The translations under genes were made by a program, and so were the position numbers. Below are positions 5,232 through 56,732 of a stretch of 64,000 nt of DNA, piece by piece. Source of the DNA: Eubacteriales bacterium (lineage in GTDB: Bacteria > Bacillota > Clostridia > Oscillospirales > CAG-272); contig JAZQWA010000075.1 in assembly GCA_045632065.1 (NCBI GenBank), positions 3,957-67,956 on the forward strand. The letters run 5' to 3'. Numbering within the stretch: the first letter of the stretch is position 1; each line of letters starts with the position of its first letter. Under the pieces are notes generated by a model that did no database searches, was not told where the DNA came from, and saw only the letters and a list, made by a program, of their open reading frames with translations.

Positions 5232-5609
5232 TTATGACAGCGCGGTTTTGATTTTTTCTATTATTTCGGGCGAACGCTCGATTAGAGAGGATATTCTGTC
5301 AACGTCGGACGAGCCTCCGTTAATATGAATCAGATTTATTTCCGCATCGCGACCTACAGTTAAAAATGCGATAGGCGTAATAGACAAGCCTGTTCCGCCT
5401 CCGCCACCGAAATTTTGCGATGGGGCAGGCTTTTTTGCTCCATAATCCACGCCGCCTGTTGCTATACCCATAGATACCTTGGAAACAGGTATAACGGTAA
5501 CTCCGCTTGGAGTGGTAATTGCATTACCGATAACCGTTTCCATATCGGTAAAGCTTTTTATGCCGTCCATAGACGCCTTAATAATATCACTCATTTTATT
5601 ATCTGACAT
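5232..5609 (-). CDS. ytfJ: sporulation protein YtfJ / GerW family
   Basis: The 125-aa protein has VIPVSKVSMG...GGGGGTGLSITPIAFL, typical of YtfJ. It overlaps the upstream DUF2953-like gene. Confidence 0.8.
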   Translation of the reverse strand: MSDNKMSDIIKASMDGIKSFTDMETVIGNAITTPSGVTVIPVSKVSMGIATGGVDYGAKKPAPSQNFGGGGGTGLSITPIAFLTVGRDAEINLIHINGGSSDVDRISSLIERSPEIIEKIKTALS

Positions 5610-30061: not shown

Positions 30062-30141
30062 TTTAATCTCCTTGTTTTTTGGGGGAATAATCCCCTCGCT
30101 ACAGTTTATGCAAAAAACAGAATAGTTGACATATTTAGATA

Positions 30142-30170
30142 TTGACAATTTTGCTTTTGTGTGGTAGAAT
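30142..30170 (+). promoter_or_regulatory. promoter of tRNA-Leu
   Basis: TTGACA (30142-30147), 17-nt spacer, then TAGAAT (30165-30170) with a TGG extended -10. The tRNA 5' end lies 13 nt downstream. Confidence 0.6.
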
Positions 30171-30182
30171 ATAAAAAGTTAT

Positions 30183-30266
30183 GCGGGCGTGGCGGAATTG
30201 GCAGACGCGCCAGACTTAGGATCTGGTGGTTACCCCGTGCAGGTTCAAGTCCTGTCGCCCGCACCA
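30183..30266 (+). tRNA. tRNA-Leu, anticodon UAG (class II, long variable arm, encoded CCA)
   Basis: Acceptor GCGGGCG/CGCCCGC; D-arm GCG-GAATTGGCAGA-CGC; anticodon stem CCAGA/TCTGG with loop CTTAGGA; T-arm GCAGG-TTCAAGT-CCTGT; terminal ACCA. Confidence 0.9.
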
Positions 30267-30308
30267 AGCAAGGAGATGGAGTCTTTTGATTCCATCTCCT
30301 TGCTTTTT
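30267..30308 (+). terminator. rho-independent terminator directly after the tRNA
   Basis: AGCAAGGAGATGGA / TCCATCTCCTTGCT 14-bp stem followed by TTTTT. Confidence 0.8.
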
Positions 30309-30405
30309 AGAAGCGAAAGGACTTGAAGTAGGAGCCGTGTAGAAAACTCTTCCGGTGGACGAGTTTTCCCGGCGAATGACTGACGAGCGCAGTTCGCGAG
30401 GAGAA

Positions 30406-30427
30406 TCAAGTCCTGTCGCCCGCACCA
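30406..30427 (+). repeat. direct repeat copy 2 of the tRNA-Leu 3' end (att-like)
   Basis: TCAAGTCCTGTCGCCCGCACCA is identical over 22 nt to 30245-30266. No matching 5' acceptor strand lies upstream, so this is not a second tRNA. Confidence 0.85.
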
Positions 30428-30433
30428 AAAAGC

Positions 30434-30456
30434 AGTTCCCCAAAGGGAACTTTTTT
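30434..30456 (+). terminator. terminator hairpin following repeat copy 2
   Basis: AGTTCCC-CAAA-GGGAACT followed by TTTTT. Confidence 0.65.
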
Positions 30457-30621
30457 GTTTGGGGACGGACTTGAACACTGTTAATTGCTGTGCAATTACG
30501 GGTTCGCCGACGACTCGCAAGCATAGTCGTCTCGGGCGTTAGGCAAGCCTTACTTCCGATACTCCTTGTTTTGCTCGGGCACTTCGGTAAAAACAGTTAT
30601 CAACTATTTTTACCTCGCTTA

Positions 30622-30637
30622 CCTGTCGCCCGCACCA
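30622..30637 (+). repeat. direct repeat copy 3 of the tRNA-Leu 3' end (att-like, 16 nt)
   Basis: CCTGTCGCCCGCACCA is identical to 30251-30266. Confidence 0.8.
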
Positions 30638-30644
30638 AAAAAAT

Positions 30645-30680
30645 GACTGTAATTTTGATACAAAATTGCAGTCTTTTTTT
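30645..30680 (+). terminator. terminator hairpin following repeat copy 3
   Basis: GACTGTAATTTT / AAAATTGCAGTC stem (one G-T pair) followed by TTTTTTT. Confidence 0.65.
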
Positions 30681-30682
30681 AT

Positions 30683-30866
30683 CCAAACCGCAGGTTTGGT
30701 ATATCATCACCGCACGAAGTGTGGTGGATATCATCAGCCCATTGAGCTGTATATCATCACTCATCAGAGTGTATTCTCCTGCGGTTTAATGATATACAAT
30801 GCTTCGCATTGATGATATACTCGTCCAAAAGCGAGATATACTCGTTTTCGGACGGATGATATACAC
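30683..30866. repeat. phased array of the 9-12 nt motif (GT)ATATCATCA(C): three forward copies then three to four inverted copies
   Basis: Forward cores lie at 30701-30709, 30728-30736 and 30751-30759. Reverse cores (TGATGATAT) lie at 30787-30795 (1 mismatch), 30810-30818 (perfect) and 30854-30862 (1 mismatch), with a partial GATATAC at 30833-30841. Spacings are 21-27 bp. Small unrelated hairpins fill the spacers. Confidence 0.8.
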
Positions 30867-30993
30867 TTTCTACGAAAGTGATAAATTTGCATGCCTTTTT
30901 ATTTTTATCAGCAAAAAGCCAATAGTTCATTTTATCCCCTTATCGTTCAATTTATGGGATATCGTTCAGTTTTTGCTTTTCGTAAGGTTGTTA

Positions 30994-31022
30994 TTGATTT
31001 TGGTTAAGGTATGTGATATAAT
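30994..31022 (+). promoter_or_regulatory. sigma-A type promoter of the GNAT gene
   Basis: TTGATT (30994-30999), 17-nt spacer, then TATAAT (31017-31022) with an upstream TGTG. Confidence 0.55.
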
Positions 31023-31063
31023 AAACTCAATTATAAATAAGAATTTAATGAGGTCATTTATAT

Positions 31064-31669
31064 ATGAACGCAAACTTTGAAATTAGTGAATTGGTCATTG
31101 AAACAGAAAGATTGGTATTACGTCCGTTTAGGCAATCCGACCTACACGATTTCAATGAATACGCATCTGTCCCGGGTGTAGGCGAGATGGCAGGTTGGAA
31201 ACATCACGAAACAATTGAAAAAACGCAGGAAATCTTGGATATGTTTATTAAAGAAGATAAAACCTTTGCAATTGTTTTCAAAAAGAATAACAAAGTAATC
31301 GGTTCTCTCGGTGTTGAAAAATATGGGCTTGAAGACAAATTGACCGAATTTAATGGCTATTATGGCCGTGAGATTGGTTACGTATTATCGAAGGATTACT
31401 GGGGCAAAGGCATTATGCCTGAAGCAGTGGGGGGCGTAATTGACTATCTGTTCAACGATTTGAATCTGGACTTTTTAACATGCGGATACTATGATTTTAA
31501 CGATCAATCTAAAAGAGTTCAGGAAAAGTGTGGCTTTAAACCTTACCGAAAGCTTGTTATGGATACTCGGTTGGGAACAAAAGAACCCGGCGTCCTAAAT
31601 ATGCTTATCAATCCTAACAAGAATATTTCGCTTGTGTTCTCCCATCCCGAAACGTTGATTTACAAATAA
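31064..31669 (+). CDS. GNAT family N-acetyltransferase (RimJ/RimL-like)
   Basis: The N-terminus TERLVLRPFRQSD is typical of the RimJ/L subgroup. The acetyl-CoA loop is YWGKGIMPEA. Confidence 0.85.
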   Translation: MNANFEISELVIETERLVLRPFRQSDLHDFNEYASVPGVGEMAGWKHHETIEKTQEILDMFIKEDKTFAIVFKKNNKVIGSLGVEKYGLEDKLTEFNGYYGREIGYVLSKDYWGKGIMPEAVGGVIDYLFNDLNLDFLTCGYYDFNDQSKRVQEKCGFKPYRKLVMDTRLGTKEPGVLNMLINPNKNISLVFSHPETLIYK

Positions 31670-31803
31670 CCGTAAATCCCAATTTATCGGTGAACTTGGT
31701 TAAAATAAAAAATGTATCCATTTAATTGTTTTGCACCTATAACGCTAAAACTTGCACCCACTCGAAAATGGTATCAAAATTTTAGATCACTCACAAATAA
31801 AAC

Positions 31804-31832
31804 AACCCCGACTCGATCGGGGTTATTTTATT
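31804..31832 (+). terminator. rho-independent terminator downstream of the GNAT gene
   Basis: AACCCCGA-CTCGA-TCGGGGTT followed by ATTTTATTT. Confidence 0.65.
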
Positions 31833-31855
31833 TGATATGGACTACGCAGCGCAAA

Positions 31856-31876
31856 TCAAGTTTTTTGCCCGCACCA
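31856..31876 (+). repeat. degenerate fourth copy of the tRNA-Leu 3' end
   Basis: TCAAGTTTTTTGCCCGCACCA compared with TCAAGTCCTGTCGCCCGCACCA. The outer TCAAGT and GCCCGCACCA blocks are conserved and the middle is diverged. Confidence 0.4.
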
Positions 31877-32046
31877 TAGCCTTGATTTTAGCTGTAAAAA
31901 GTGGTATAATCTAAACGATAAGTAGTGTGATTTTAAAAAACGAAAAAATACTTAAATCAACACATTATGCAATTGTTGTTGTTCAATTTTTCTCTTGAGG
32001 TTGGTAAAATATAGACACAATAAAACAACCGAAAAGGAGAAACAAA

Positions 32047-32400
32047 ATGAACACAGACAAAATTTATGCAGAATCCATCGCAAAGGAATACGCGCCCAAG
32101 GATAACTCCAAAATCGTAGCACTTCGCAAGCTTGACAAAAAGGCAAAGATGCCCGCAACTATTTTCACCTACACCTTCGGCATCTTTTCATCGCTCGTGT
32201 TGGGCACGGGAATGTGCTTTGCAATGAAGGTTATCGGCAGCGGTATCATTGATATGATAATAGGAATAGTCGTTGGCATTGTTGGTATGGTTGGATGCGG
32301 TGTTAACTATCCTATCTATAAAAAGATGCTTGAGAACGGCAAAAAGAAGTATGCTTATCAGATCGTAGAGCTTGCAAGAGAAATAAGCGACGGCAAATAA
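32047..32400 (+). CDS. small two-TM membrane protein (117 aa)
   Basis: AAAGGAG RBS, a cytoplasmic basic N-terminus, then two Gly-rich TM helices. First gene of a three-gene unit with a TetR regulator. Confidence 0.6.
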   Translation: MNTDKIYAESIAKEYAPKDNSKIVALRKLDKKAKMPATIFTYTFGIFSSLVLGTGMCFAMKVIGSGIIDMIIGIVVGIVGMVGCGVNYPIYKKMLENGKKKYAYQIVELAREISDGK

Positions 32401-32421
32401 TCATTCGCGGAGGTGTGTATT

Positions 32422-33018
32422 ATGAATAGAAATGAAAGTAAATATTTCAATACGGCAATCAAAATGGACGAAGCCCTCATCACCCTCCTTGAAAAGAAAG
32501 ATTTTGAATTTATTACCATTAAAGAAATATGTGATACAGCAGGTGTAAACCGCTCTACCTTTTACTTGCATTACGATAACACCTCTGATTTGCTTCAGGA
32601 AACGGTGCGGTATATTGTTGGTAAGCATCTAAAATATTACGGAATAGATAATCAACACTTATCCTTGCAATTCGAAAATTGCAGGCAAGAAGAGCTACTG
32701 TTTATAACCGATGAGTATCTTGCTCCATATCTGACGTTTATCAAGGAAAATAAGCGCTTGTTTAAGGTGTCTATAAAGCGTTTTCATTCAATGCATATGG
32801 ATGATGTATACAGCGAAATGTTTGAGCGTATCTTTTGTCCTATACTTGCTAGATTTCGCGTTCCCGAGCTCGAGCGTTCCTACGTAATAAAATTCTATTT
32901 AACAGTTGTATTTGCTGTTATTAACGAATGGCTTGAAAGGGATTGCTCGGACGACAAGGAAACAATTGTTAAGGTAATATTGGATTGCGTGTTGGGGGAG
33001 AGAAAGGTAAATGGATAG
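32422..33018 (+). CDS. TetR/AcrR family transcriptional regulator
   Basis: HTH segment ITIKEICDTAGVNRSTFYLHYDN. ATG 32422 lies 9 nt after GGAGG. Confidence 0.85.
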   Translation: MNRNESKYFNTAIKMDEALITLLEKKDFEFITIKEICDTAGVNRSTFYLHYDNTSDLLQETVRYIVGKHLKYYGIDNQHLSLQFENCRQEELLFITDEYLAPYLTFIKENKRLFKVSIKRFHSMHMDDVYSEMFERIFCPILARFRVPELERSYVIKFYLTVVFAVINEWLERDCSDDKETIVKVILDCVLGERKVNG

Positions 33019-33595
33019 AACGTTTAAGCTCGCCCTTACGAGCTTGGCATTCAACGTAATTTTTGCAATCTATCATCTCGTATTAGGATTGGTAACACGC
33101 TCGTGGTGGCTTCTGACACTCGGCACATATTACCTCGTTTTAAGTGTTGTTCGTTTTATGGTGTTACGCTTCAAATCAAACGAGCGCTTTATTACTAAAC
33201 TAACCGGTTGGATGCTCATAACAATGTCCGTTCCTCTTGCAGGAACAGTCATACTCTCTGTAGTTAAGGACAGGGGACATGAGCTTCATATGATAGTAAT
33301 GATAGCAATGGCTGCCTATGCATTTACCAAGATTACGCTAGCAGTAATGAGATTTATACAAGCTCGTAACAGCGATTCGGCGACGCTTATCACGCTAAGA
33401 AACATATCATTAGCCCATGCTTTCGTTTCAATATTTGCATTACAGCGCTCAATGCTCGTGTCCTTTGATGGAATGATGGATACCGAAATAGTGATTATGA
33501 ACGCCGCGCTTGGTTCTGTTGTATATGTGATTGTCCTTCTTCTCGGAATAAATCTTATTAAAAACAGAAGGATACTGTTCAAGAGCATAGAATAA
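33011..33595 (+). CDS. polytopic membrane protein (194 aa)
   Basis: 8-nt overlap with the TetR gene. About six hydrophobic helices. No motif recognised. Confidence 0.6.
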   Translation: MDRTFKLALTSLAFNVIFAIYHLVLGLVTRSWWLLTLGTYYLVLSVVRFMVLRFKSNERFITKLTGWMLITMSVPLAGTVILSVVKDRGHELHMIVMIAMAAYAFTKITLAVMRFIQARNSDSATLITLRNISLAHAFVSIFALQRSMLVSFDGMMDTEIVIMNAALGSVVYVIVLLLGINLIKNRRILFKSIE

Positions 33596-33631
33596 TTTGC
33601 TTCGAAAAAACTGATTATCATGAGTGTTTAG

Positions 33632-33660
33632 TTGACAGAAGAAAAAATTTGTGATATAAT
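33632..33660 (+). promoter_or_regulatory. sigma-A type promoter of the membrane-bound XRE regulator gene
   Basis: TTGACA (33632-33637), 17-nt spacer, then TATAAT (33655-33660) with an upstream TGTG. Confidence 0.55.
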
Positions 33661-33710
33661 AGCACAAGATTATAATACAGCGATGAGCTGTTTGAATTTG
33701 GAGAACTTTT

Positions 33711-34310
33711 ATGAAGGATATAAAAGGCATAGTTGCCAAAAATATATGCGAACTTCGTCAATTAAACAATATGACGCAGCTTGAATTAGCTGAAAAATTA
33801 AACTATTCGGATAAAGCGATATCCAAGTGGGAAAGGGCTGAATCCTGTCCCGATATTTCCGTGCTTGTTCAAATTGCCGAGATGTTCGGAGTAACGGTAG
33901 ACTATCTTGTTAATGAAGATAATAAAAAGCCCGATTTAAATAAGGGCACATCGGATGAGGGCAGGTATAATCGCAGAGCGATTGCATATATTTCGGAAAG
34001 CTGCGCTTGGATAATTGCTATTGTTGCATTTATTATTACGACCTTGATTTTAAAACAAACGACTTTTCAATTCCTTTATTTTGCCTACGCATTGCCCGTG
34101 GCGATGATTGTTAAGCTCGTGTTTAACTCTGTATGGTTTAATCCAAGACATAATTATCTCATCATATCCATTTTGATGTGGTCGCTTCATGCAGCGATAC
34201 ATATTACGTTTTTGTATTTTGGAATTGACGTCGCCCTTATCTATATAATAGGTGTTGCAGGGCAGATCGTTATAGTTCTTTGGTCTTTCATCTCAAAACC
34301 TAAAAAGTAA
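33711..34310 (+). CDS. XRE-family HTH regulator fused to a C-terminal four-TM domain
   Basis: HTH_3 segment LRQLNNMTQLELAEKLNYSDKAISKWERAESCPDISVLVQIAEMFGVTVDYL, followed by hydrophobic helices. Confidence 0.8.
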   Translation: MKDIKGIVAKNICELRQLNNMTQLELAEKLNYSDKAISKWERAESCPDISVLVQIAEMFGVTVDYLVNEDNKKPDLNKGTSDEGRYNRRAIAYISESCAWIIAIVAFIITTLILKQTTFQFLYFAYALPVAMIVKLVFNSVWFNPRHNYLIISILMWSLHAAIHITFLYFGIDVALIYIIGVAGQIVIVLWSFISKPKK

Positions 34311-34323
34311 ATAATAGTTAGAA

Positions 34324-34361
34324 AAAATCCTCGTTTTCATTGGAAAAACGAGGATTTTTTG
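34324..34361 (+). terminator. rho-independent terminator
   Basis: AAAATCCTCGTTTTC / GAAAAACGAGGATTTT stem followed by a T-run. Confidence 0.75.
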
Positions 34362-34506
34362 TTGCTTTCTACGGGCGGTAGAGCGGTAGAGCTAAAACTC
34401 TACTGCTCGAAAACAAGATATAGACCTGCATGGAAGAACAGTCGATTGACTTTCTTTGACAAATTAAGATATAATTGAGACAATGATTTAAAAAAGGAGT
34501 AAAAAA

Positions 34507-35433
34507 ATGACCAAAGAGATACCGATTTTCTTTTCAACCGATGATAACTATATACCGTTTTTGGATGTCGCAATTTCGTCTTTGATTTTAAATGCGTCAA
34601 AGGAATTTGAATATAGAATTGTTGTTTTGAACACAGGACTTAATGCGGAGAACGTTAGTAAGGTTAAGCAAAACGAAAAGCCAGGCTTTAAAATTGATTT
34701 TGTTGATATTTCCGAGGACGTTGAGAGGATAAAGACGAGATTGAAGAACGTTTATCACTTCTCAGTTGTTACGTACTATCGACTTTTTATCGCATCGCTT
34801 TTCCCTGAGTATGACAAGGTAATATATTTGGATTGCGACCTGGTGATTTTAGGCGATATATCCAAGCTTTATCATACCGAGCTTGCTGATAATATCTTAG
34901 CAGCGGCGCCCGAGCAGTTCGTTCAGAATACAAAAGAGTTCAGATTATATGCAAAAAATGCGCTTGGCGTTGATCCCGATGGATATGTTAACGCTGGAGT
35001 GCTTCTTATGAATCTTAAGGAATTCAGAAAAAATGAGATAGAAGAAAAATTCGTTCATCTTATAACCGAGTATGATTTCGATTTGCTTGATCCTGACCAG
35101 GCATATTTAAATTATCTATGCTTGGGCAAGATTCACGTTCTTCCAAATGGATGGAATAAGGAGCCTATGCCCCTTGCCTGCGAGGGTGAAAAGAACATAG
35201 TGCATTATGCTTTGTATAAGAAGCCTTGGCAGTATGACGACGTAATGGATGGCGAATATTTTTGGAGTTATGCAAAAAAATCGCCATTTTACGATGAAAT
35301 ATGTCAAAGAAAAGATAATTTCAGTGAGTCTGAAAGGGCGCAGAAGGAAGCCACAGCCCACGAAATTCTTGAGCACGCCTTGAGGATTATTGACTCAGAG
35401 GATACCTTCTCAAAACAACTGTGTAATAAATGA
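34507..35433 (+). CDS. glycosyltransferase family 8
   Basis: AAAGGAG RBS. IFFSTDDNYIPFL N-terminal motif, DxD in YLDCDLV, and NAGVLLMNL. Confidence 0.85.
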   Translation: MTKEIPIFFSTDDNYIPFLDVAISSLILNASKEFEYRIVVLNTGLNAENVSKVKQNEKPGFKIDFVDISEDVERIKTRLKNVYHFSVVTYYRLFIASLFPEYDKVIYLDCDLVILGDISKLYHTELADNILAAAPEQFVQNTKEFRLYAKNALGVDPDGYVNAGVLLMNLKEFRKNEIEEKFVHLITEYDFDLLDPDQAYLNYLCLGKIHVLPNGWNKEPMPLACEGEKNIVHYALYKKPWQYDDVMDGEYFWSYAKKSPFYDEICQRKDNFSESERAQKEATAHEILEHALRIIDSEDTFSKQLCNK

Positions 35434-35443
35434 GGATCGTGGT

Positions 35444-36274
35444 ATGGAAAAATCAGAGCATAAGTTAGAGCTTCTAAAGCGAATTGAAGAGCTTGAAAAA
35501 CAACAGCTTTGGCATCTCGACGTAGAGGATGACCCTGAAACCTATCCGCTTATGCCGGATCGGGTTGATTATCTGAATGAAAAGCTCTCAAGCAAAATAA
35601 AAAATCGAATCGCAAATTTCCTTGGCACGAGATTCTTCGAGGGAATGATTGCCAAGCGTCAGTTAATTATAAAGGAAGTCCGCGGAATTGAAAACTTTAC
35701 CGCGGTAAGCGGTGGCAAGATTGTTACCTGCAATCATTTCAGTATAAGTGATAATTACGCTGTCTGGAGATCGTTGCGCGATCATATGGGCGGTAAAATG
35801 TTATACAAAATTATCCGTGAGGGAAATTATACAAATCCTCCGAAGCCTTTTGGCATGATGATGCGACATTGTAACACACTGCCTCTTTCCAGCCAGACGT
35901 CTACTATGAAGAAATTTCTTCGAGCTGTTAAGGTGCTGCTTGAGCGCGGAGAAACTATTTTGATCTATCCAGAGCAGGGAATGTGGTGGAATTATCGCAA
36001 GCCTAAGCCCATGCAGGACGGGGCGTTTACACTTGCCATCAGAAATAAAACTCCCATAATACCTATTTTTATAACCATGGAGGACAGCGACTTCCTTGAT
36101 GATGACGGATTTTTTGTACAGGAGTATACGGTACATATTTTACCTGCTATATATCCTGACGAAACGCTGACAAACGTGGAGGCAAGAGACAAAATGAAAA
36201 GGGAGAACTACGGGGCTTGGGTAAAGGTTTACGAGGACTTTTATAAAACGCCTCTTGTTTATTCAGAACAATGA
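35444..36274 (+). CDS. lysophospholipid (PlsC-like) acyltransferase family protein
   Basis: HX4D motif NHFSISD and YPEQG (PEG-type) motif. The gene starts 10 nt after the GT8 stop. Confidence 0.7.
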   Translation: MEKSEHKLELLKRIEELEKQQLWHLDVEDDPETYPLMPDRVDYLNEKLSSKIKNRIANFLGTRFFEGMIAKRQLIIKEVRGIENFTAVSGGKIVTCNHFSISDNYAVWRSLRDHMGGKMLYKIIREGNYTNPPKPFGMMMRHCNTLPLSSQTSTMKKFLRAVKVLLERGETILIYPEQGMWWNYRKPKPMQDGAFTLAIRNKTPIIPIFITMEDSDFLDDDGFFVQEYTVHILPAIYPDETLTNVEARDKMKRENYGAWVKVYEDFYKTPLVYSEQ

Positions 36275-36843
36275 AGCTGTATCTTTCAATCATAGGCATT
36301 TCAATGGCGATAATATCCGCTGTGAATATACTGCTTGAGACTGCCTCGTGGTATTATATAATTATAGCGGTGGTTTGGTGTACTGCGCTTCAATTTGCTC
36401 TTGACGGCGCTATTGCTATTATCATAAACAAAATGCCTGACAGGTGGTTTGGCATAGATAATCCGTTTTATGAGGTTTCAGATAGAGAAAGAGAGTTATA
36501 CAAGATACTGAAGGTAAGGCTGTGGAAGGATAAGGTGTGGGAACTTGGTGGTCTTGGTGGATTCAGTAAGAGAAAACTCAACGAGCCGAACAATCCTGAA
36601 TACATTGAAAAGTTCATTATTGAATGTAACAAGGGCGTGCTTACGCACAGACTTGCATATCCTATCGGCTTTTTGGCGATGCTCACATTGCCAAATGCTT
36701 GCGCGATTACAATAGCGCTCCCTGTTGCCATTGTAAATTTGTTTTTATGTATCCTGCCGACACTTGCTCTTCGATATAACACTCCTATGCTTAAGTCAGT
36801 GCTAAAAAGACTAAAAAAACGAAAATTAAGTGAAATTTCATAG
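36271..36843 (+). CDS. membrane protein, possibly glycosyl-4,4'-diaponeurosporenoate acyltransferase-like
   Basis: ATGA overlap with the upstream acyltransferase. It has two N-terminal and two C-terminal TM helices flanking RLWKDKVWELGG.. and HRLAYP segments. The family resemblance is from memory only. Confidence 0.4.
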   Translation: MKLYLSIIGISMAIISAVNILLETASWYYIIIAVVWCTALQFALDGAIAIIINKMPDRWFGIDNPFYEVSDRERELYKILKVRLWKDKVWELGGLGGFSKRKLNEPNNPEYIEKFIIECNKGVLTHRLAYPIGFLAMLTLPNACAITIALPVAIVNLFLCILPTLALRYNTPMLKSVLKRLKKRKLSEIS

Positions 36844-36908
36844 CAGAATTCTAAAAGGCGACGCAATGAGTGTTGCCTTTTATGTTTTGCTATCTGGAAA
36901 ATAAAAAA

Positions 36909-36971
36909 ATGACAAGTATACTTGGCAGTAATATAATATGGCTTTGACAAGAAAACTTGTCATGATATAAA
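36909..36971 (+). promoter_or_regulatory. tandem promoters overlapped by two TGACAAG/CTTGTCA inverted repeats (operator candidates)
   Basis: IR1 is TGACAAGTATACTTGGCA (36910-36927), overlapping a -35-like ATGACA, with TATAAT at 36932-36937. IR2 is TGACAAGAAAACTTGTCA (36945-36962), overlapping TTGACA (36944-36949), with TATAAA at 36966-36971. Confidence 0.45.
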
Positions 36972-36987
36972 ACATACGAGGTTACTT

Positions 36988-37308
36988 ATGGAAAAAGAAA
37001 TCGTTTTAGAATTGAGCCGAAAGGAAAACGAAGGCAGACATGACGAAATGGAAAAGAATGCGTATGGCGGCGCTTCAAAGGTCGGAATGCTAGTAGGCGG
37101 CATTGTTTGCGTGGCGTTAGTTCTTTTGTCGGAATTTCTCTTTAAAATTCCTGAAATAGGACTTGCCGCATGGCTTGTTTATTTTGCTATGCAGGGGAGT
37201 CATTCTATTAGCCTGTATGCGCAGTTGAAAAAACATAGCAGGCTTATATATGGAATAGTTTATATTGCTTTTTCGTTCCTTTTTCTTGTTGCTTTATGTA
37301 TGATGTAG
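36988..37308 (+). CDS. small three-TM membrane protein (106 aa)
   Basis: GAGG RBS. Charged N-terminus followed by hydrophobic helices. Paired with the downstream 68-aa HTH protein. Confidence 0.6.
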   Translation: MEKEIVLELSRKENEGRHDEMEKNAYGGASKVGMLVGGIVCVALVLLSEFLFKIPEIGLAAWLVYFAMQGSHSISLYAQLKKHSRLIYGIVYIAFSFLFLVALCMM

Positions 37309-37321
37309 TTGGTGGAAGAAA

Positions 37322-37528
37322 ATGGATGAAAAGCTTGTGTTAAAAAACAATTTAAAGGCTATAAGATCAGAGAAAAACATCTCTCAGCACCAGCTTGCAG
37401 ATATGGTCGGCGTGTCAAGAAACACCATCAGCTCTATAGAAACAGGACAGTTTAATCCAACTGCAAAATTAGCTCTGATTTTGTGTATTGCGCTTGATAA
37501 AAGGTTTGAGGATGTGTTTTATTTTTAA
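37322..37528 (+). CDS. small XRE/Cro-type HTH transcriptional regulator (68 aa)
   Basis: NLKAIRSEKNISQHQLADMVGVSRNTISSIETGQFNPT is a canonical HTH_3 segment. Confidence 0.85.
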   Translation: MDEKLVLKNNLKAIRSEKNISQHQLADMVGVSRNTISSIETGQFNPTAKLALILCIALDKRFEDVFYF

Positions 37529-37563
37529 TTTGTGGCTTAAGAGAAAATTTAAAATGAATAATC

Positions 37564-37592
37564 TTGCACTTTATAAAACTATGTGATATAAT
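37564..37592 (+). promoter_or_regulatory. sigma-A type promoter of pepO
   Basis: TTGCAC (37564-37569), 17-nt spacer, then TATAAT (37587-37592) with an upstream TGTG. Confidence 0.5.
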
Positions 37593-37643
37593 GTTGTTTG
37601 ATCGAAAATCTTGCTTAGATATTAAGCATTTAAGGAGATAATT

Positions 37644-39542
37644 ATGGAAAATATTAGAATTCAAGACGATCTTTATATGTTCGTTAACCAGCAAAAACTT
37701 GAGGAGCTTGTTATTCCCGATGATAAGCCCGTTGCAGGCGGTTTTTCTGAGCTTGCAGACGGAGTAGAGAAGATTATGATGGACGAGTTTTCCACCATGT
37801 CCGAGAACAAGTCATATCCCAACGACTATCTTGCAAGAGCTTGCCAGCTTTATGCTATTGCAAAGGATGCTGACAGAAAGGGGGAGCAGGGCATCTCGCC
37901 CGCGCTTAAACGTCTTGCGCTTCTCAATGACATCAACGGTGTTGAGGATTTCGGCCGTCTTTACAAGACACTTTCATTGAATGGAATTCCTACTCCTATC
38001 AATATCGGCGTTGACACTGATATGAAGAACACAAAACAGCGTCTCGTATATATCCAGGGCGCAAGCGTGATTCTTCCCGACGCTTCCTATTACAAGCCTG
38101 AAATGGCTGCGCAGAAGGAGCAGATTATCGGCATCTGGACAAACGTTGCCAAGGCAGTTATGGCAAAGACTGATCTTACGCCCGAGCAGCAGGAGCAGTA
38201 CGTTAACGACGCGCTTGCATTCGACGAGATTCTCGGTGGACTTGTTAAGACAAGTGAGGAATGGTCGAGATACGTTGAAATGTACAATCCCATGGACGAA
38301 AAGGCTGTTGCAGAAATGCTTAAGCCTCTTGATTTTGATGTGGTGCTTAACGATTTGTTCGGCAAGCTTCCTGCTACTATTGTTGTAACAGAGCCTCGCT
38401 TCTTCGGTGAATTTGGTAAGGTGCTTAACGCTGAGACTCTTGAGCTTTACAAGCACTGGGTATACGTAACAGGTCTTCTTCACTCCTGCTCCTATCTTTC
38501 CGAGGAGCTTCGTGATCTCGGTGGCGCATATCACCGCGCTCTTACCGGCGTTGCTGTTATGCAGCCTATTGATAAATTTGCTTATAACCTTGCATCCGGT
38601 ATGTTCTCCGAGCCCGTAGGTATTTACTACGGTGAGAAGTACTTCGGCGAGGAAGCAAAGAAGGATATTACCGAGATCGTATATCAGATTATTGATACAT
38701 ACAAGTCCCGTATTAAGACTAACGAGATTCTTGGTGAGGAAACCAAGGAGAAGGCTATTCTTAAGCTCTCTAAGATGGGCGTAAAGATGGGCTATCCCGA
38801 CAAGTCAAGAGCAATTTACGAGAAGCTCGTATTTAATCCCGAGGATTCGCTCTTTGATATCGTTCTTTCTCTTAAGGCAATCAAGGAGCTCGACTCTCTT
38901 TCTAAGCTTGATATGCCTACTGAGCCCGAAAACTGGGCAATGCCCGGTCATATGGTAAATGCATGCTACGATCCCTTCGTAAATGACATTACATTCCCTG
39001 CGGCAATTCTTCAGGCACCCTTCTACTCCTTGAAGCAGACCAGAAGCGAGAACCTTGGTGGTATCGGTGCGGTTATCGGTCACGAGATTTCTCACGCATT
39101 CGACTCTAATGGTGCAAAGTGTGATGAAAACGGTAATATTAACAACTGGTGGACAGAGGATGACTTTAATAGATTTGAAGCAAAGGTTAACCAGATGATA
39201 GAGCAGTTTGACGGCATTGAGCTTCCTTGGGGTAAGGTTAACGGCGCATTCATCGTTAGCGAGAATATGGCTGACAACGGTGGAGTTGCAGTAACTCTCG
39301 ATATTATGTCGAGAACAGAGGGCGCATCCTACGAGGAGTACTTCTCCAACTGGGCAAGAGTTTGGTGTCAGAAGGCAAGACCTGAGTATTCTCAGCTTCT
39401 TCTTTCGGTTGACGTTCACGGTCCTTGTATGCTTCGTGCAAACATTACCCCCAGAAACTTCAGTGAGTGGTATTCAACCTTCGGTGTAGTTGATACCGAT
39501 AAGATGTATATTGCTCCCGAAAAGCGTATAGTTATTTGGTAA
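37644..39542 (+). CDS. pepO: M13 family metalloendopeptidase (PepO/neprilysin-like)
   Basis: Zinc motif VIGHEISHAFD, second ligand motif ENMADNGG, and C-terminal CxxW-like VVIW tail. Confidence 0.9.
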   Translation: MENIRIQDDLYMFVNQQKLEELVIPDDKPVAGGFSELADGVEKIMMDEFSTMSENKSYPNDYLARACQLYAIAKDADRKGEQGISPALKRLALLNDINGVEDFGRLYKTLSLNGIPTPINIGVDTDMKNTKQRLVYIQGASVILPDASYYKPEMAAQKEQIIGIWTNVAKAVMAKTDLTPEQQEQYVNDALAFDEILGGLVKTSEEWSRYVEMYNPMDEKAVAEMLKPLDFDVVLNDLFGKLPATIVVTEPRFFGEFGKVLNAETLELYKHWVYVTGLLHSCSYLSEELRDLGGAYHRALTGVAVMQPIDKFAYNLASGMFSEPVGIYYGEKYFGEEAKKDITEIVYQIIDTYKSRIKTNEILGEETKEKAILKLSKMGVKMGYPDKSRAIYEKLVFNPEDSLFDIVLSLKAIKELDSLSKLDMPTEPENWAMPGHMVNACYDPFVNDITFPAAILQAPFYSLKQTRSENLGGIGAVIGHEISHAFDSNGAKCDENGNINNWWTEDDFNRFEAKVNQMIEQFDGIELPWGKVNGAFIVSENMADNGGVAVTLDIMSRTEGASYEEYFSNWARVWCQKARPEYSQLLLSVDVHGPCMLRANITPRNFSEWYSTFGVVDTDKMYIAPEKRIVIW

Positions 39543-39572
39543 TAAAATATTTAATAAAATTTAAAAAAGTAC

Positions 39573-39601
39573 TTGATTTTTGCAAACAAGTATGATATAA
39601 T
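39573..39601 (+). promoter_or_regulatory. sigma-A type promoter of rpsT (about 100-nt leader)
   Basis: TTGATT (39573-39578), 17-nt spacer, TATAAT (39596-39601). Confidence 0.5.
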
Positions 39602-39704
39602 ACATCAGGTAAAAATGTGATTGTATGTAATGTTGTGTCGAAGGACCCTCTCAGCCTGAGATTTTGACAGAGCATAGGTCGCTTAAATTTAAAGGAGAAA
39701 TAAA

Positions 39705-39968
39705 ATGGCTAATATTAAGTCCGCAAAGAAGCGTATTCTTGTTAACCGTACCAAGGCACTCCAGAACCAGATGGTTAAGAGCCAGCTTAAGACTGTAATC
39801 AAGAAGTTCAGCGCTGCTGTTGAGGCAGGCGATAAGACCGCTGCTTCTGAACTTTACAGACTTGCTGTTAAGAAGGTAGACCAGGCAGTTGCTCACGGTA
39901 TCCTTCACAAGAACAACGCGGCTCACAAGAAGTCCGAGTTCACCAAGAAGTTCAACGCAATGGCATAA
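39705..39968 (+). CDS. rpsT: 30S ribosomal protein S20
   Basis: The MANIKSAKKRILVNRTKALQNQ start is typical of S20. AAAGGAG RBS. Confidence 0.95.
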   Translation: MANIKSAKKRILVNRTKALQNQMVKSQLKTVIKKFSAAVEAGDKTAASELYRLAVKKVDQAVAHGILHKNNAAHKKSEFTKKFNAMA

Positions 39969-55401: not shown

Positions 55402-55530
55402 TACTTATCAAGAGTGGCGGAGGGACTGGCCCTGTGAAGCCCGGCAACCTGTATTTTATATAAGGTGCTAATTCCCGATAGATGAGTTACGCTCGAGGCT
55501 CGGGAATAAGACTCCCGAGCCTTCGCTTTT
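55402..55530 (+). promoter_or_regulatory. SAM-I (S-box) riboswitch with terminator-type expression platform
   Basis: CTTATCAAGAGTGGCGGAGGGACTGGCCCTGTGAAGCCCGGCAACC...GGTGCTAATTCC matches the S-box core. It is followed by a GAGGCTCGGGA / TCCCGAGCCTT hairpin and CTTTT, directly upstream of metK. Confidence 0.9.
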
Positions 55531-55550: not shown

Positions 55551-56732
55551 ATGAAAAAAATACTTTTTACATCTGAATCGGTAACAGAGGGACATCCCGA
55601 CAAAATCTGTGATAAAATTTCCGATGCTATTCTTGACGAAATGCTCGCTCAGGATCCCGAAAGCCGTGTTGCTTGCGAAACTTTTGCTACCACAGGTATT
55701 ATTACCGTTATGGGAGAGATTACAACAAAGGCGCGCGTTGATATTCAAAAAATAGTTCGTGACACTGTTGCTGAAATCGGTTACGACAGAGCAAAATACG
55801 GCTTTGATGCTACAACCTGCGCGGTTTTAAGCTCTATTCACGAGCAGAGCGCAGATATTGCACTCGGTGTTGACAAGTGTCTTGAGGCAAAAGAGGGCGA
55901 GCTTGGTGATGATCTTGACACAGGAGCAGGCGACCAGGGCCTTATGTTTGGATATGCTTGTGACGAAACTCCCGAGCTTATGCCGCTTCCTATTTCATTG
56001 GCGCATAAGCTTGCAAAAAGACTCACCGAGGTTAGAAAGGATGGAACACTCAGCTATCTTCGTCCTGATGGAAAGACTCAGGTTACTATCGAGTACGTTG
56101 ACGGAAAACCTGTGAGAGTTGATACGATCGTTGTATCCTCTCAGCACGCTCCCGAGATTGATTCTGCAACGATTCGTAAGGATATTATTGATAAGGTAAT
56201 TCTTCCTACAATTCCCAGTGAGCTTATCGACGGAAAGGTTAATATTTACGTTAATCCCACCGGAAGATTCGTTATTGGCGGACCTCAGGGTGATACCGGT
56301 CTTACAGGTAGAAAAATTATCGTTGATACCTACGGCGGATATTCTAGACATGGTGGCGGCGCATTCTCGGGAAAGGATCCTACAAAGGTTGACCGTAGCG
56401 CATCCTATGCAGCAAGATACGTTGCAAAGAATATTGTAAAGGCAGGTCTTGCATCAAAGTGTGAAGTGCAGATTGCTTACGCAATCGGTATTGCTAAGCC
56501 TGTATCCGTAATGGTTGATACATTTGGCACAGCAACAGTTGCAGAGGAGAAAATTGTAGATGCTGTAAATCAGCTTGTAGATCTTCGTCCCGCTGCTATT
56601 ATTAAGAAATTTGAGCTTCGCAAGCCCATCTACAAGCAGCTTTCTGCTTATGGACACATGGGTAGAGAAGAGCTTGGAGTTAAGTGGGAAGAATGCGATA
56701 TTGCAGATAAACTCGCGGAACTTTGCAAATAA
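55551..56732 (+). CDS. metK: S-adenosylmethionine synthase
   Basis: [28 protein letters not shown] and [16 protein letters not shown] motifs. Confidence 0.95.

Follow-up and report, generated by a model that had tools for sequence, protein, structure and literature searches.

A modular array behind tRNA-Leu(UAG)

The window analyzed here is a 64,000-nt stretch of contig JAZQWA010000075.1 (assembly GCA_045632065.1), to which all coordinates below refer, from an uncultured gut organism of the Eubacteriales/Oscillospiraceae type. The only tRNA gene in the window, that for tRNA-Leu(UAG) (30183-30266; identified in agreement by ARAGORN and Rfam), is followed by a modular, polymorphic array, not a static scar, that is built of short gene-less units and small expression cassettes. 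From the tRNA onward, the array consists of terminator Ta, unit 1 and a copy of the tRNA 3' end (copy 2); terminator Tb, unit 2 and copy 3; terminator Tc and cassette A, which ends ...ACTCACA; terminator Td, a degraded unit tail and copy 4; and a truncated cassette B. All these features lie on the plus strand. The tRNA gene encodes its CCA and is preceded by a strong sigma-70-type promoter (30142-30170; TTGACA-17-TAGAAT with TG, 11 of 12 matches). The neighbors of the locus are ordinary chromosomal genes: a DUF11 surface protein, a histidine kinase and GltX are encoded upstream of the tRNA, and a GNAT, a small membrane protein, TetR and glycosyltransferases downstream.

The last 22 nt of the tRNA (copy 1, 30245-30266; TCAAGTCCTGTCGCCCGCACCA), delimited by repeat search, recur exactly (22/22) at 30406-30427 as copy 2; 16 of them (CCTGTCGCCCGCACCA) recur without mismatch at 30622-30637 as copy 3, and a degenerate version (TCAAGTTTTTTGCCCGCACCA) occupies 31856-31876 as copy 4. 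With three mismatches allowed, the 16-mer has 3 matches against 0.18 expected, and none of 100 shuffled sequences gave three; the 10-mer GCCCGCACCA occurs four times in the 64 kb, each time within the tRNA-Leu locus and the fourth time (31867-31876) within copy 4, against 0.03 expected. These stacked repeats, noticed in a preliminary description of the same DNA, are thereby confirmed as real and beyond chance. Copies 2-4 receive no tRNA call from ARAGORN or from Rfam even at E<=10, in line with the earlier statement that copies 2 and 3 are not tRNA genes. Between 30100 and 32050 only the true tRNA scores in Rfam, with nothing else near the gathering score of any family (E<=10), and an Rfam scan of 8 related loci gave no match.

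A terminator follows each of the first three copies, as had been described, with two given by a terminator scan and the first by folding. The hairpin after copy 1 (30266-30305, followed by a T-run) is not listed by the scan, yet folds as an 18-bp stem; the terminator that it forms, Ta (30267-30308; folding and repeat search), is the apex of a 41-bp interrupted palindrome, in that the tRNA tail, Ta and the inverted tail copy of unit 1 make up a single interrupted hairpin with internal loops (z = -9.6). The scan recovers terminator-like hairpins at 30434-30451, 30645-30673 and 31804-31824. The first of these, with its T-run, belongs to Tb (30428-30456), which is homologous to the terminator ahead of unit 2 in L010, a related locus considered below. 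The second belongs to Tc (30638-30680; GACTGTAATTTTGATACAAAATTGCAGTC), the left end of cassette A, which is identical to its L010 counterpart at 35 of 35 positions and contains AATTTTGATAC, the inverted partner of the cassette A 3' end. The third belongs to Td (31796-31834; terminator scan and repeat search).

The reverse complement of the T-arm core, GGACTTGAA, is located at 30319-30327 and 30467-30475, that is, in both segments between the copies, as the preliminary description had it; a search with this sequence gave 5 matches in the window against 0.64 expected. The length of these inverted complements had, however, been understated: they span 15-22 nt (GCGAAAGGACTTGAA and GGG-GAC-GGACTTGAACACTG). 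Across all units described below, the inverted copy corresponds to the last 15-30 nt of the local tRNA, slightly decayed.

Occupied, empty and rearranged states of the site

The site was compared across about 50 related loci, all from metagenome or metagenome-assembled genome (MAG) assemblies, and surveyed among species with one genome per species, located by GltX. A 99.06% identical strain (L001) has the array as in the window. In L012 and L020, tRNA-Leu(UAG) is followed only by a terminator and ordinary genes, so that these sites are empty; L011 is empty as well, and its native terminator recurs immediately after the cassette end in L128. In L038 the tRNA is not at this position. In L010 (GltX 92% identical), the tRNA is followed by a terminator, a unit 2 homologue, Tc, a hairpin array, three boxes and a promoter; unit 1 is lacking, and an unrelated cargo gene stands where the window has the GNAT gene. 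The tRNA itself differs between the two (T-loop TTCGACT in L010 vs TTCAAGT in the window; acceptor strand TTACCC vs TCGCCC), and both the direct and the inverted copy of the L010 unit 2 bear the L010 version. The earlier suggestion of a much-used insertion site is borne out by occupied and empty states, with empty sites in L012 and L020, by the differently composed array of L010, and by the presence of the same family behind other tRNA genes. Comparison of L010 (1-7435) with the window (30150-39968) also reveals that a segment extending from the tRNA-Leu array up to about 39.5 kb (window coordinates) is inverted in L010 relative to the window, L011 and L012, with one breakpoint between the DUF11 gene and the tRNA promoter.

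Gene-less units with ends derived from the local tRNA

Unit 1 (30309-30427, 119 nt; delimited by repeats, fold and comparison of tRNA ends) contains no gene and consists of an inverted tail copy (30313-30327), a body that folds as a three-way junction, and the direct copy 2 (30406-30427). Its inverted repeat is 14 nt long at 93%, the z of its fold is -2.65 (about -2.7 for the window units), and only the window and strain L001 (99% identical) were found to contain it. Unit 2 (30457-30637, 181 nt; delimited by folding and comparison with L010) is likewise devoid of genes and consists of an inverted copy (30461-30480), four hairpins and the direct copy 3 (30622-30637); an unpaired 17-nt segment with an anti-Shine-Dalgarno core, ACTTCCGATACTCCTTG (30552-30568), is invariant between the window and L010.

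Equivalent units were found for tRNA-Leu(UAG) in two tRNA variants, for a further tRNA-Leu type in L125, for tRNA-Tyr (variants X, X' and Y) and for tRNA-Val. They range from about 110 to 260 nt and share a layout: a terminator, the inverted tail of the local tRNA, several hairpins, and a direct tRNA-tail copy ending CCA. When the Leu, the variant Leu, the Tyr and the Val units were compared with each of the tRNAs, the best complement of the 5' segment of each unit was its own local tRNA. The bodies of Tyr-type and Leu-type units share the motifs CTGACGCTCC and, directly ahead of the direct copy, CGCTNTTA, despite their different tRNA ends, so that homologous scaffolds appear to bear different tRNA ends.

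In folding, the Tyr and Val units far exceed shuffled sequences (z between -5.3 and -6.4), and their two tRNA-derived ends pair to close the structure. The closing stem leaves ACCA free in the Tyr unit, whereas CCA is paired in the Val unit, and units 1 and 2 of the window have a 6-8-nt tail left beyond it. Unit 2 is 82% identical between the window and L010 and shows 5 compensatory pairs against none in slid controls; in the five sequences of the Tyr family, 6 pairs are changed on both sides. For the Tyr family and unit 2 together, slid controls gave 0-1 such pairs and the observed values were reached in 0-2 of 500 shuffles, in small samples of 3 to 5 sequences per alignment. The preliminary description had favored decaying remnants of larger elements as the source of the short segments; the conservation of unit 2 with compensatory changes, and the match of the Tyr, Val and other Leu equivalents to the local tRNA, speak against this. 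The stems are almost purely Watson-Crick, with very few G-U pairs, and both strands fold equally well, which gives no positive support to a reading of the units as RNA. The data support either a folded nucleic acid or DNA palindromes maintained by template switching, and do not single out RNA.

Several specific functions of the units were considered and rejected. Unit 1 contains the hammerhead-like CUGACGAG, but the remaining core of that ribozyme is missing, the homologues read CUGACGC or CUGGACG, and Rfam reports nothing. A retroviral-type primer-binding site does not fit either: only the Val and Tyr units have the TGG start, and the window units are complementary to the stretch from the T-loop to the middle of the acceptor, not to the CCA end. 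An 11-nt segment of unit 2, CTCCTTGTTTT, is antisense to the ribosome-binding region of the neighboring DUF11 gene (30068-30078), but no matching site lies ahead of the DUF11 gene in L010, and the identity is probably a coincidence.

Expression cassettes in the window

Behind Tc, cassette A continues with an ORF-free (open reading frame) array of motifs interleaved with small hairpins (30681-30885; delimited by motif count and by comparison with L010 and L104). Seven motif copies of 9-11 nt are present, three of GTATATCATCA and four of the reverse TGATGATATAC (array motif GATGATATAC). The layout is matched in L010 and L104 but with another motif, GATGAAATC, and the array looks like a set of co-evolving, putative protein-binding sites of the arm, partition or iteron type. 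Three direct boxes follow at 30922-30968 (ATAGTTCA, ATCGTTCA and ATCGTTCA, at a spacing of about 19-20 nt); they were recognized as repeats and serve as a signature of the family, being kept upstream of the cassette promoter in L010, L090, L091 and 40 metagenome loci. The promoter itself (30994-31022; TTGATT-17-TATAAT with TG; promoter scan and comparison) is followed by a conserved leader with a ribosome-binding site, exactly behind which unrelated ORFs stand in the different cassette loci. The cargo of cassette A is a GNAT acetyltransferase of 201 aa (31064-31669; PF13302, 2.4e-26). The conserved 3' module (31670-31795) consists of TGCACC repeats, GGTATCAAAATTTT (31770-31783) and the end ...GATCACTCACA, which reaches 31795. 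The cassette 3' end GGTATCAAAATTTTAGATTACTCACA looks like a decayed copy of the tRNA T-arm and acceptor and, given this resemblance and its inverted partner AATTTTGATAC in the leading terminator, the cassette seems to follow the plan of the units.

The segment 31835-31876, which includes copy 4 (repeat search), resembles unit 1 at its 3' end and is on that ground probably a degraded unit tail. Cassette B (31877-32400; promoter scan and homology) is truncated at its 5' end: its promoter (31882-31910) abuts copy 4 and no boxes are present. Its gene (32047-32400) encodes a 117-aa membrane protein homologous to the cargo of L116, in which the box region is full. The preliminary description had noticed neither that the 1.2-kb segment belongs to a family of cassettes with promoter and cargo nor that a truncated cassette follows copy 4. 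Far from the array, a SAM riboswitch (55402-55488; 76.6 bits) is found upstream of the S-adenosylmethionine synthetase gene (55551-56732), an ordinary arrangement.

A cassette family behind at least seven tRNA genes

The boxes (CGTTCAATTTATGGGNTATCGTTCA) and the 3' end (GGTATCAAAATTTTRGATYACTCAC) served as signatures of the cassette family, and the box signature retrieved 40 metagenome loci; the scans of genomes and metagenomes, run once and with specific signatures, under-sample the breadth of the family and any autonomous relatives. In all 14 box-bearing loci with a visible upstream tRNA (12 metagenome loci, the window and L010), the boxes are located 188-678 nt downstream of the tRNA and on the same strand. 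The tRNAs are Leu(UAG), Leu(GAG), two different Val(GAC), Pro(CGG) and Tyr(GUA) and, with an array behind tRNA-Glu(UUC) included, modules of the family are found behind at least seven different tRNA genes. In L099, L119 and L104 the cassette starts directly after the CCA, with no unit between, and in L119 a tRNA-Leu(CAG) begins 7 nt past the cassette end ...ACTCACA. The right end ...GGTATCAAAATTTTAGATTACTCACA was found in 13 distinct contexts, and in L091 the end of one cassette abuts the start of the next, so that the cassettes are in tandem.

The cargo is diverse. The first ORFs behind the cassette promoter at 39 loci fall into 22 clusters, although a few of the called ORFs are probably spurious, and include ANT(2'')-like and APH proteins, a GDSL hydrolase, the ChrA chromate transporter, NUDIX, DUF5714, a kinase and two GNAT types. 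In L091 (1-5930), the cargo is a complete LlaJI-type restriction-modification system (an HTH regulator, two C5 methylases, an AAA_5 ATPase and an endonuclease). The box region of the family and a promoter of similar type precede it, another cassette ends immediately ahead of these, and prophage genes are adjacent.

Shuffling of modules is apparent at several sites. Between tRNA-Tyr and RNase Y, three alternative cargos are present among assemblies, and the units vary from X only or Y only to X' with Y and a partial Y with X; in L100, Tyr-type units and a cassette are located behind a tRNA-Val. The GNAT of the window has more than 100 homologues at 90% identity or higher, nearly all on contigs of 0.7-3 kb and mostly on isolated ones of about 1 kb, as expected of a sequence that has several contexts and at whose flanks assemblies break. 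A 94%-identical copy belongs to the array behind tRNA-Ser(GCU)-tRNA-Glu(UUC), where it is preceded by a small cassette ending ...ACTCACA, joined to TAAAG, and followed by the genes for the 117-aa protein and TetR as in the window; the order GNAT, 117-aa protein, TetR recurs in L247 and L248. Within the first cassette behind the tRNA-Glu of L247, an inverted tRNA 3' half, TGGAGACTGACCACGGATTCGAACC (5370-5400), does not match the local tRNA-Glu, as if it had been brought from an earlier site. Many of the contigs L092-L131 and P0002-P0120 start or stop within a few hundred bases of a cassette signature; assemblies break systematically at cassette arrays, so that such loci will be under-represented in MAGs.

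Search for a recombinase or an autonomous partner

No recombinase is found near the modules. A Pfam scan of the 40 ORFs of the window detected no site-specific recombinase domain, in agreement with the original remark that an integrase is lacking, and no DEDD transposase is encoded among these ORFs. There is no fragment of an integrase or other element gene between the tRNA-tail copies, and no recombinase stands beside any cassette examined. The preliminary description had proposed a search for elements with the same att core; in viral contigs, the 22-nt core was found only inside complete tRNA-Leu genes.

The patterns of unit 2 and of terminator Tc had no viral match, the cassette 3'-end pattern was found in viral contigs only in L091, and a plasmid BLAST search gave no match. 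The 116 matches of the three-box pattern in viral contigs were all unrelated coding repeats or phage iterons. In two viral contigs, L003 and L004, terminators located directly after tRNA-Leu(UAG) contain the core TTGATACAA, like the leading terminators of the cassettes, which hints that the family may be wider than the box signature retrieves.

The one phage BLAST match, L090, proved to be a mislabelled bacterial fragment. This sequence (GenBank MT836745.1) is labelled 'Bacteriophage sp.' but is really a chromosomal fragment, with genes for FtsK, a MiaB-like protein, PgsA, CinA, RecA and RNase Y and a tRNA-Tyr cassette array at one end. It displays the cassette layout behind a different tRNA tail, which turned out to be that of tRNA-Tyr(GUA). 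The tRNA is followed by a terminator, a hairpin-rich unit with inverted and direct copies of the tail of this tRNA, a terminator with TTGATAC in it, three ATCGTTCA boxes, a promoter, another GNAT and the conserved 3' end. Two classes of ends were looked for and rejected. There is no convincing right-end hairpin of the IS200/IS605 type and, of a Xer/dif-type or large-serine-recombinase-type site, only a loose dyad (16/24) across the cassette-cassette joint, which is not diagnostic.

Origin of the array and alternative explanations

The array was probably, although by no means certainly, built up at the tRNA 3' end by site-specific insertions in series (or accretion), with the enzyme supplied in trans. 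Each insertion would have occurred right behind the ...CCA of tRNA-Leu(UAG) or behind the tail copy of the previous module. The anatomy of the modules is shown by the comparisons: insertions lie exactly behind a ...CCA, each module supplies at its 5' side the terminator for the tRNA or module ahead of it, the decayed inverted tRNA-tail copy comes next, and the closing direct copy, or tail-like sequence, rebuilds the target for the next insertion. Two kinds of modules are present, gene-less hairpin units and expression cassettes composed of terminators, boxes, a promoter, one or two cargo genes and the 3' end. The modules would be joined by site-specific recombination, with the mover most likely encoded at another place in the genome or by a visiting element; mobility in trans fits because no module encodes a recombinase. 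Homologous recombination between cassette flanks and between the direct tRNA copies would then shuffle or delete modules. The second option of the preliminary description, tiny non-autonomous elements mobilized in trans, fits better than plain scars, with no integrase nearby.

Several points weigh against this scenario. No recombinase was observed, and the chemistry of joining is one that we infer; nor did the searches find an autonomous element with this att. The tails of the at least seven tRNAs share little beyond a C-rich stretch and ACCA, an unusual pattern for a conventional integrase, the att core of which is fixed. Classical attP sites do not include an inverted tRNA-tail copy of 15-30 nt set apart from the direct copy by a terminator. 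Compensatory changes in hairpins are unexpected for arms that bind proteins as double-stranded DNA. Homologous recombination between the conserved flanks alone could explain the replacement of cargo, and the comparators, being metagenome assemblies, are prone to breaks or mis-joins at repeats.

The many tRNA targets, the long inverted copies and the compensatory hairpins keep in play a folded-DNA or guide-like substrate, which we consider rather unlikely. The direct and inverted copies would pair, as single-stranded DNA or as RNA, and rebuild an image of the tRNA-tail duplex that a host recombinase, or one acting in trans, would join to the tRNA gene, in the manner of integron attC sites and the attP of the CTX phage or of an IS110 bridge RNA; mobility is not denied here, only its mechanism refined, with the unit as a specificity module re-templated for each tRNA. 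Such a substrate would account at once for the lack of a dedicated integrase and for the many tRNA targets, and is consistent with the complementarity of the 5' segment of every unit to its own tRNA, which co-varies between the window and L010, with the single 41-bp hairpin of tRNA tail, terminator and inverted copy, with closing stems formed by the two copies in well-folded units, with pairing that survives double changes, with homologous unit bodies that bear different tRNA ends (the L125 unit included), and with Watson-Crick, strand-symmetric stems as expected of DNA hairpins. Yet no candidate enzyme was found in the window or beside the cassettes, and the cassettes of L099, L119 and L104 were inserted without a unit, which is therefore not required each time; template-switch mutation can produce compensatory changes in palindromes without selection, the alignments hold only 3 to 5 sequences, the GTTRRRY consensus of attC is missing, and nothing characteristic of IntI, a Xer site or IS110 was seen. 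In its fullest form, this idea amounts to an integron-like cassette system of gut Clostridia that would use tRNA 3' ends as entry sites, recombinase-less modules, and long imperfect palindromes of tRNA tail, terminator and inverted tail as joints, the units being re-templatable specificity elements, as folded DNA or guide-like RNA, that let one trans-acting enzyme serve many tRNA genes. We regard such a system as doubtful, and a mechanism of a new kind likewise as possible but on balance unlikely. A role as structured small RNAs is more improbable still: the units would be read through from the tRNA promoter, trimmed by tRNA-processing enzymes and act as regulators, sponges or tRNA mimics, with the closing stem and ACCA imitating an acceptor end and the tail copies serving processing, not recombination. 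Small RNAs derived from spacers of tRNA operons are known in E. coli, and the strong promoter ahead of the tRNA, the ...CCA followed by its own terminator at the end of every unit, the free ACCA beyond the closing stem of the Tyr unit, the invariant unpaired ACTTCCGATACTCCTTG of unit 2 and covariation counts that favor structure would all suit such RNAs. The units, however, have no promoter of their own, and a strong terminator precedes each of them; the plus strand folds no better than its complement, and G-U pairs are very few; acceptor mimicry is inconsistent, given the paired CCA of the Val unit and the 6-8-nt tail in the window; Rfam gives no match; and neither the presence/absence polymorphism and shuffling nor the Tyr-type units behind tRNA-Val are explained.

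It is also improbable, to much the same extent, that no dedicated recombinase is involved and that the array is the product of general processes only. Incoming DNA would recombine by homology with the conserved tRNA and cassette flanks, the direct copies would slip against each other, and the terminator palindromes would cause template switching that creates and maintains the inverted copies. Conserved 5' flanks of about 250-400 nt and 3' flanks of about 125 nt suffice for RecA-dependent replacement, cargo genes are exchanged exactly between these flanks, deletions end in partial copies in L129, in L247 and at copy 4 of the window, and quasi-palindrome correction can mimic compensatory change. 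Homologous recombination, however, cannot first place a cassette precisely after the CCA of unrelated tRNA genes, and the uniform end architecture of the modules is left unexplained. The least probable of these explanations, and a very unlikely one, is that favored by the preliminary description, namely inert scars left by large integrase-bearing elements after deletion of their interiors. The classic pattern of partial-tRNA repeats is present (PMC4383910) and copy 4 and its surroundings are clearly decayed, but the units are conserved between species and share an architecture across tRNA families, the modules recur in several combinations, and not even a fragment of an element gene remains between the copies. 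Serial insertion by an enzyme acting in trans, with homologous recombination as the source of much of the rearrangement, is the reading that we prefer.

If this reading is correct, tRNA genes of abundant gut Firmicutes are docking sites for tiny, self-expressed accessory-gene cassettes that lack a recombinase, and the mobile cargo includes drug-modifying enzymes, restriction-modification systems and transporters. Such cassettes escape the standard tools, as island finders key on integrases and assemblies break at the loci, and they could explain part of the strain-level gene flux in the gut. Unit ends that track the local tRNA would offer a handle on target switching, of relevance to the biology of mobile elements and to programmable insertion tools.

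Comparison with known systems

It is established that partial-tRNA repeats are left by serial integration at tRNA 3' ends and that elements flanked by att sites may lack a recombinase (PMC4383910; 10.1101/2020.12.28.424599; PMC5704250), so that the stacked partial tRNAs and the att-flanked modules without a recombinase are of kinds already known. Literature searches found no description of this cassette family, in which a standard operator, promoter and 3' end are combined with about 20 cargos behind at least seven tRNA genes, with palindromic units templated by the tRNA and with the lack of a recombinase in cis.

The tRNA islands of the Islander type (PMC4383910) have in common with the array an intact tRNA followed by direct repeats of its 3' segment (T-loop/T-stem to CCA), the new terminator that an insert brings, and the stacking of partial tRNAs by serial insertion; occupied and empty states are found here as well. 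They differ in that the islands contain an integrase, usually beside one att site, whereas none is found in or near the modules, and in size (5-100 kb against 0.12-1.2 kb), and the array is distinguished by the long inverted tRNA-tail copy beyond each terminator and by the presence of one cassette family behind at least seven tRNA genes. The cis-mobilizable elements (CIMEs) that accompany integrative and conjugative or integrative and mobilizable elements (ICEs and IMEs) in streptococci (PMC5704250, PMC6323972) are likewise flanked by att sites, lack recombination and transfer genes, accrete in tandem at one att, and presumably move by the integrase of a related element. The modules of the array are att-flanked without recombination or conjugation modules, which agrees with the CIME definition in its descriptive half only; the viral, plasmid and phage searches brought up no parental ICE or IME that uses this att, the modules are far smaller, and the cassette ends are conserved across different tRNA targets. 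The tycheposons of Prochlorococcus (10.1101/2020.12.28.424599) form islands at tRNA genes in which nothing but a partial tRNA copy stands between neighboring elements, older elements are displaced inward by newer ones and the cargo is adaptive. They carry their own tyrosine recombinase and replication genes, both of which are lacking here, whereas the cassettes of gut Clostridia each have a standard operator and promoter. The modules do not fit MITEs, which are non-autonomous DDE transposons with terminal inverted repeats specific to the element and a target-site duplication of fixed length: the inverted ends of the modules are the tail of the local tRNA and vary with the tRNA, and the flanking direct copies are 13 to 22 nt long.

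In the folded attC sites of integrons and in the folded single-stranded attP of the CTX phage, paired strands act as the recombination site. The likeness to these systems extends to small one-gene modules with diverse accessory cargo in head-to-tail arrays at one entry site, to imperfect palindromes with internal loops at the joints, and to paired inverted copies that imitate a target duplex. The entry site here is the end of a tRNA gene, with no IntI beside it (the upstream genes being those for the DUF11 protein, the histidine kinase and GltX); the joints read ...ACTCACA joined to TAAAG... or ...CCA joined to the terminator, with no R''/R' (RYYYAAC ... GTTRRRY), and the cassettes have terminators upstream and a TTGATT-17-TATAAT promoter of their own, whereas integron cassettes are mostly promoter-less. 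In Acinetobacter plasmids, the pdif modules moved by host XerC/XerD are comparable as short modules of one or two genes that are bounded by inverted recombination sites, encode no recombinase of their own and spread as mosaics, but no dif-like 11-6-11 site is recognized in the array, which is chromosomal, lies beside tRNA genes and has its modules in direct, not alternating, orientation. Finally, ISPpu9/ssr9 of Pseudomonas putida, of the IS110 family (PMC12288879), targets REP sequences and its known transposase is mostly adjacent, whereas the targets here are tRNA tails and no DEDD transposase was seen in the window; nevertheless, it parallels the units of the array as a gene-less structured module, present alone or joined to others at palindromic targets, that is spread as a separate circle by a recombinase not its own.

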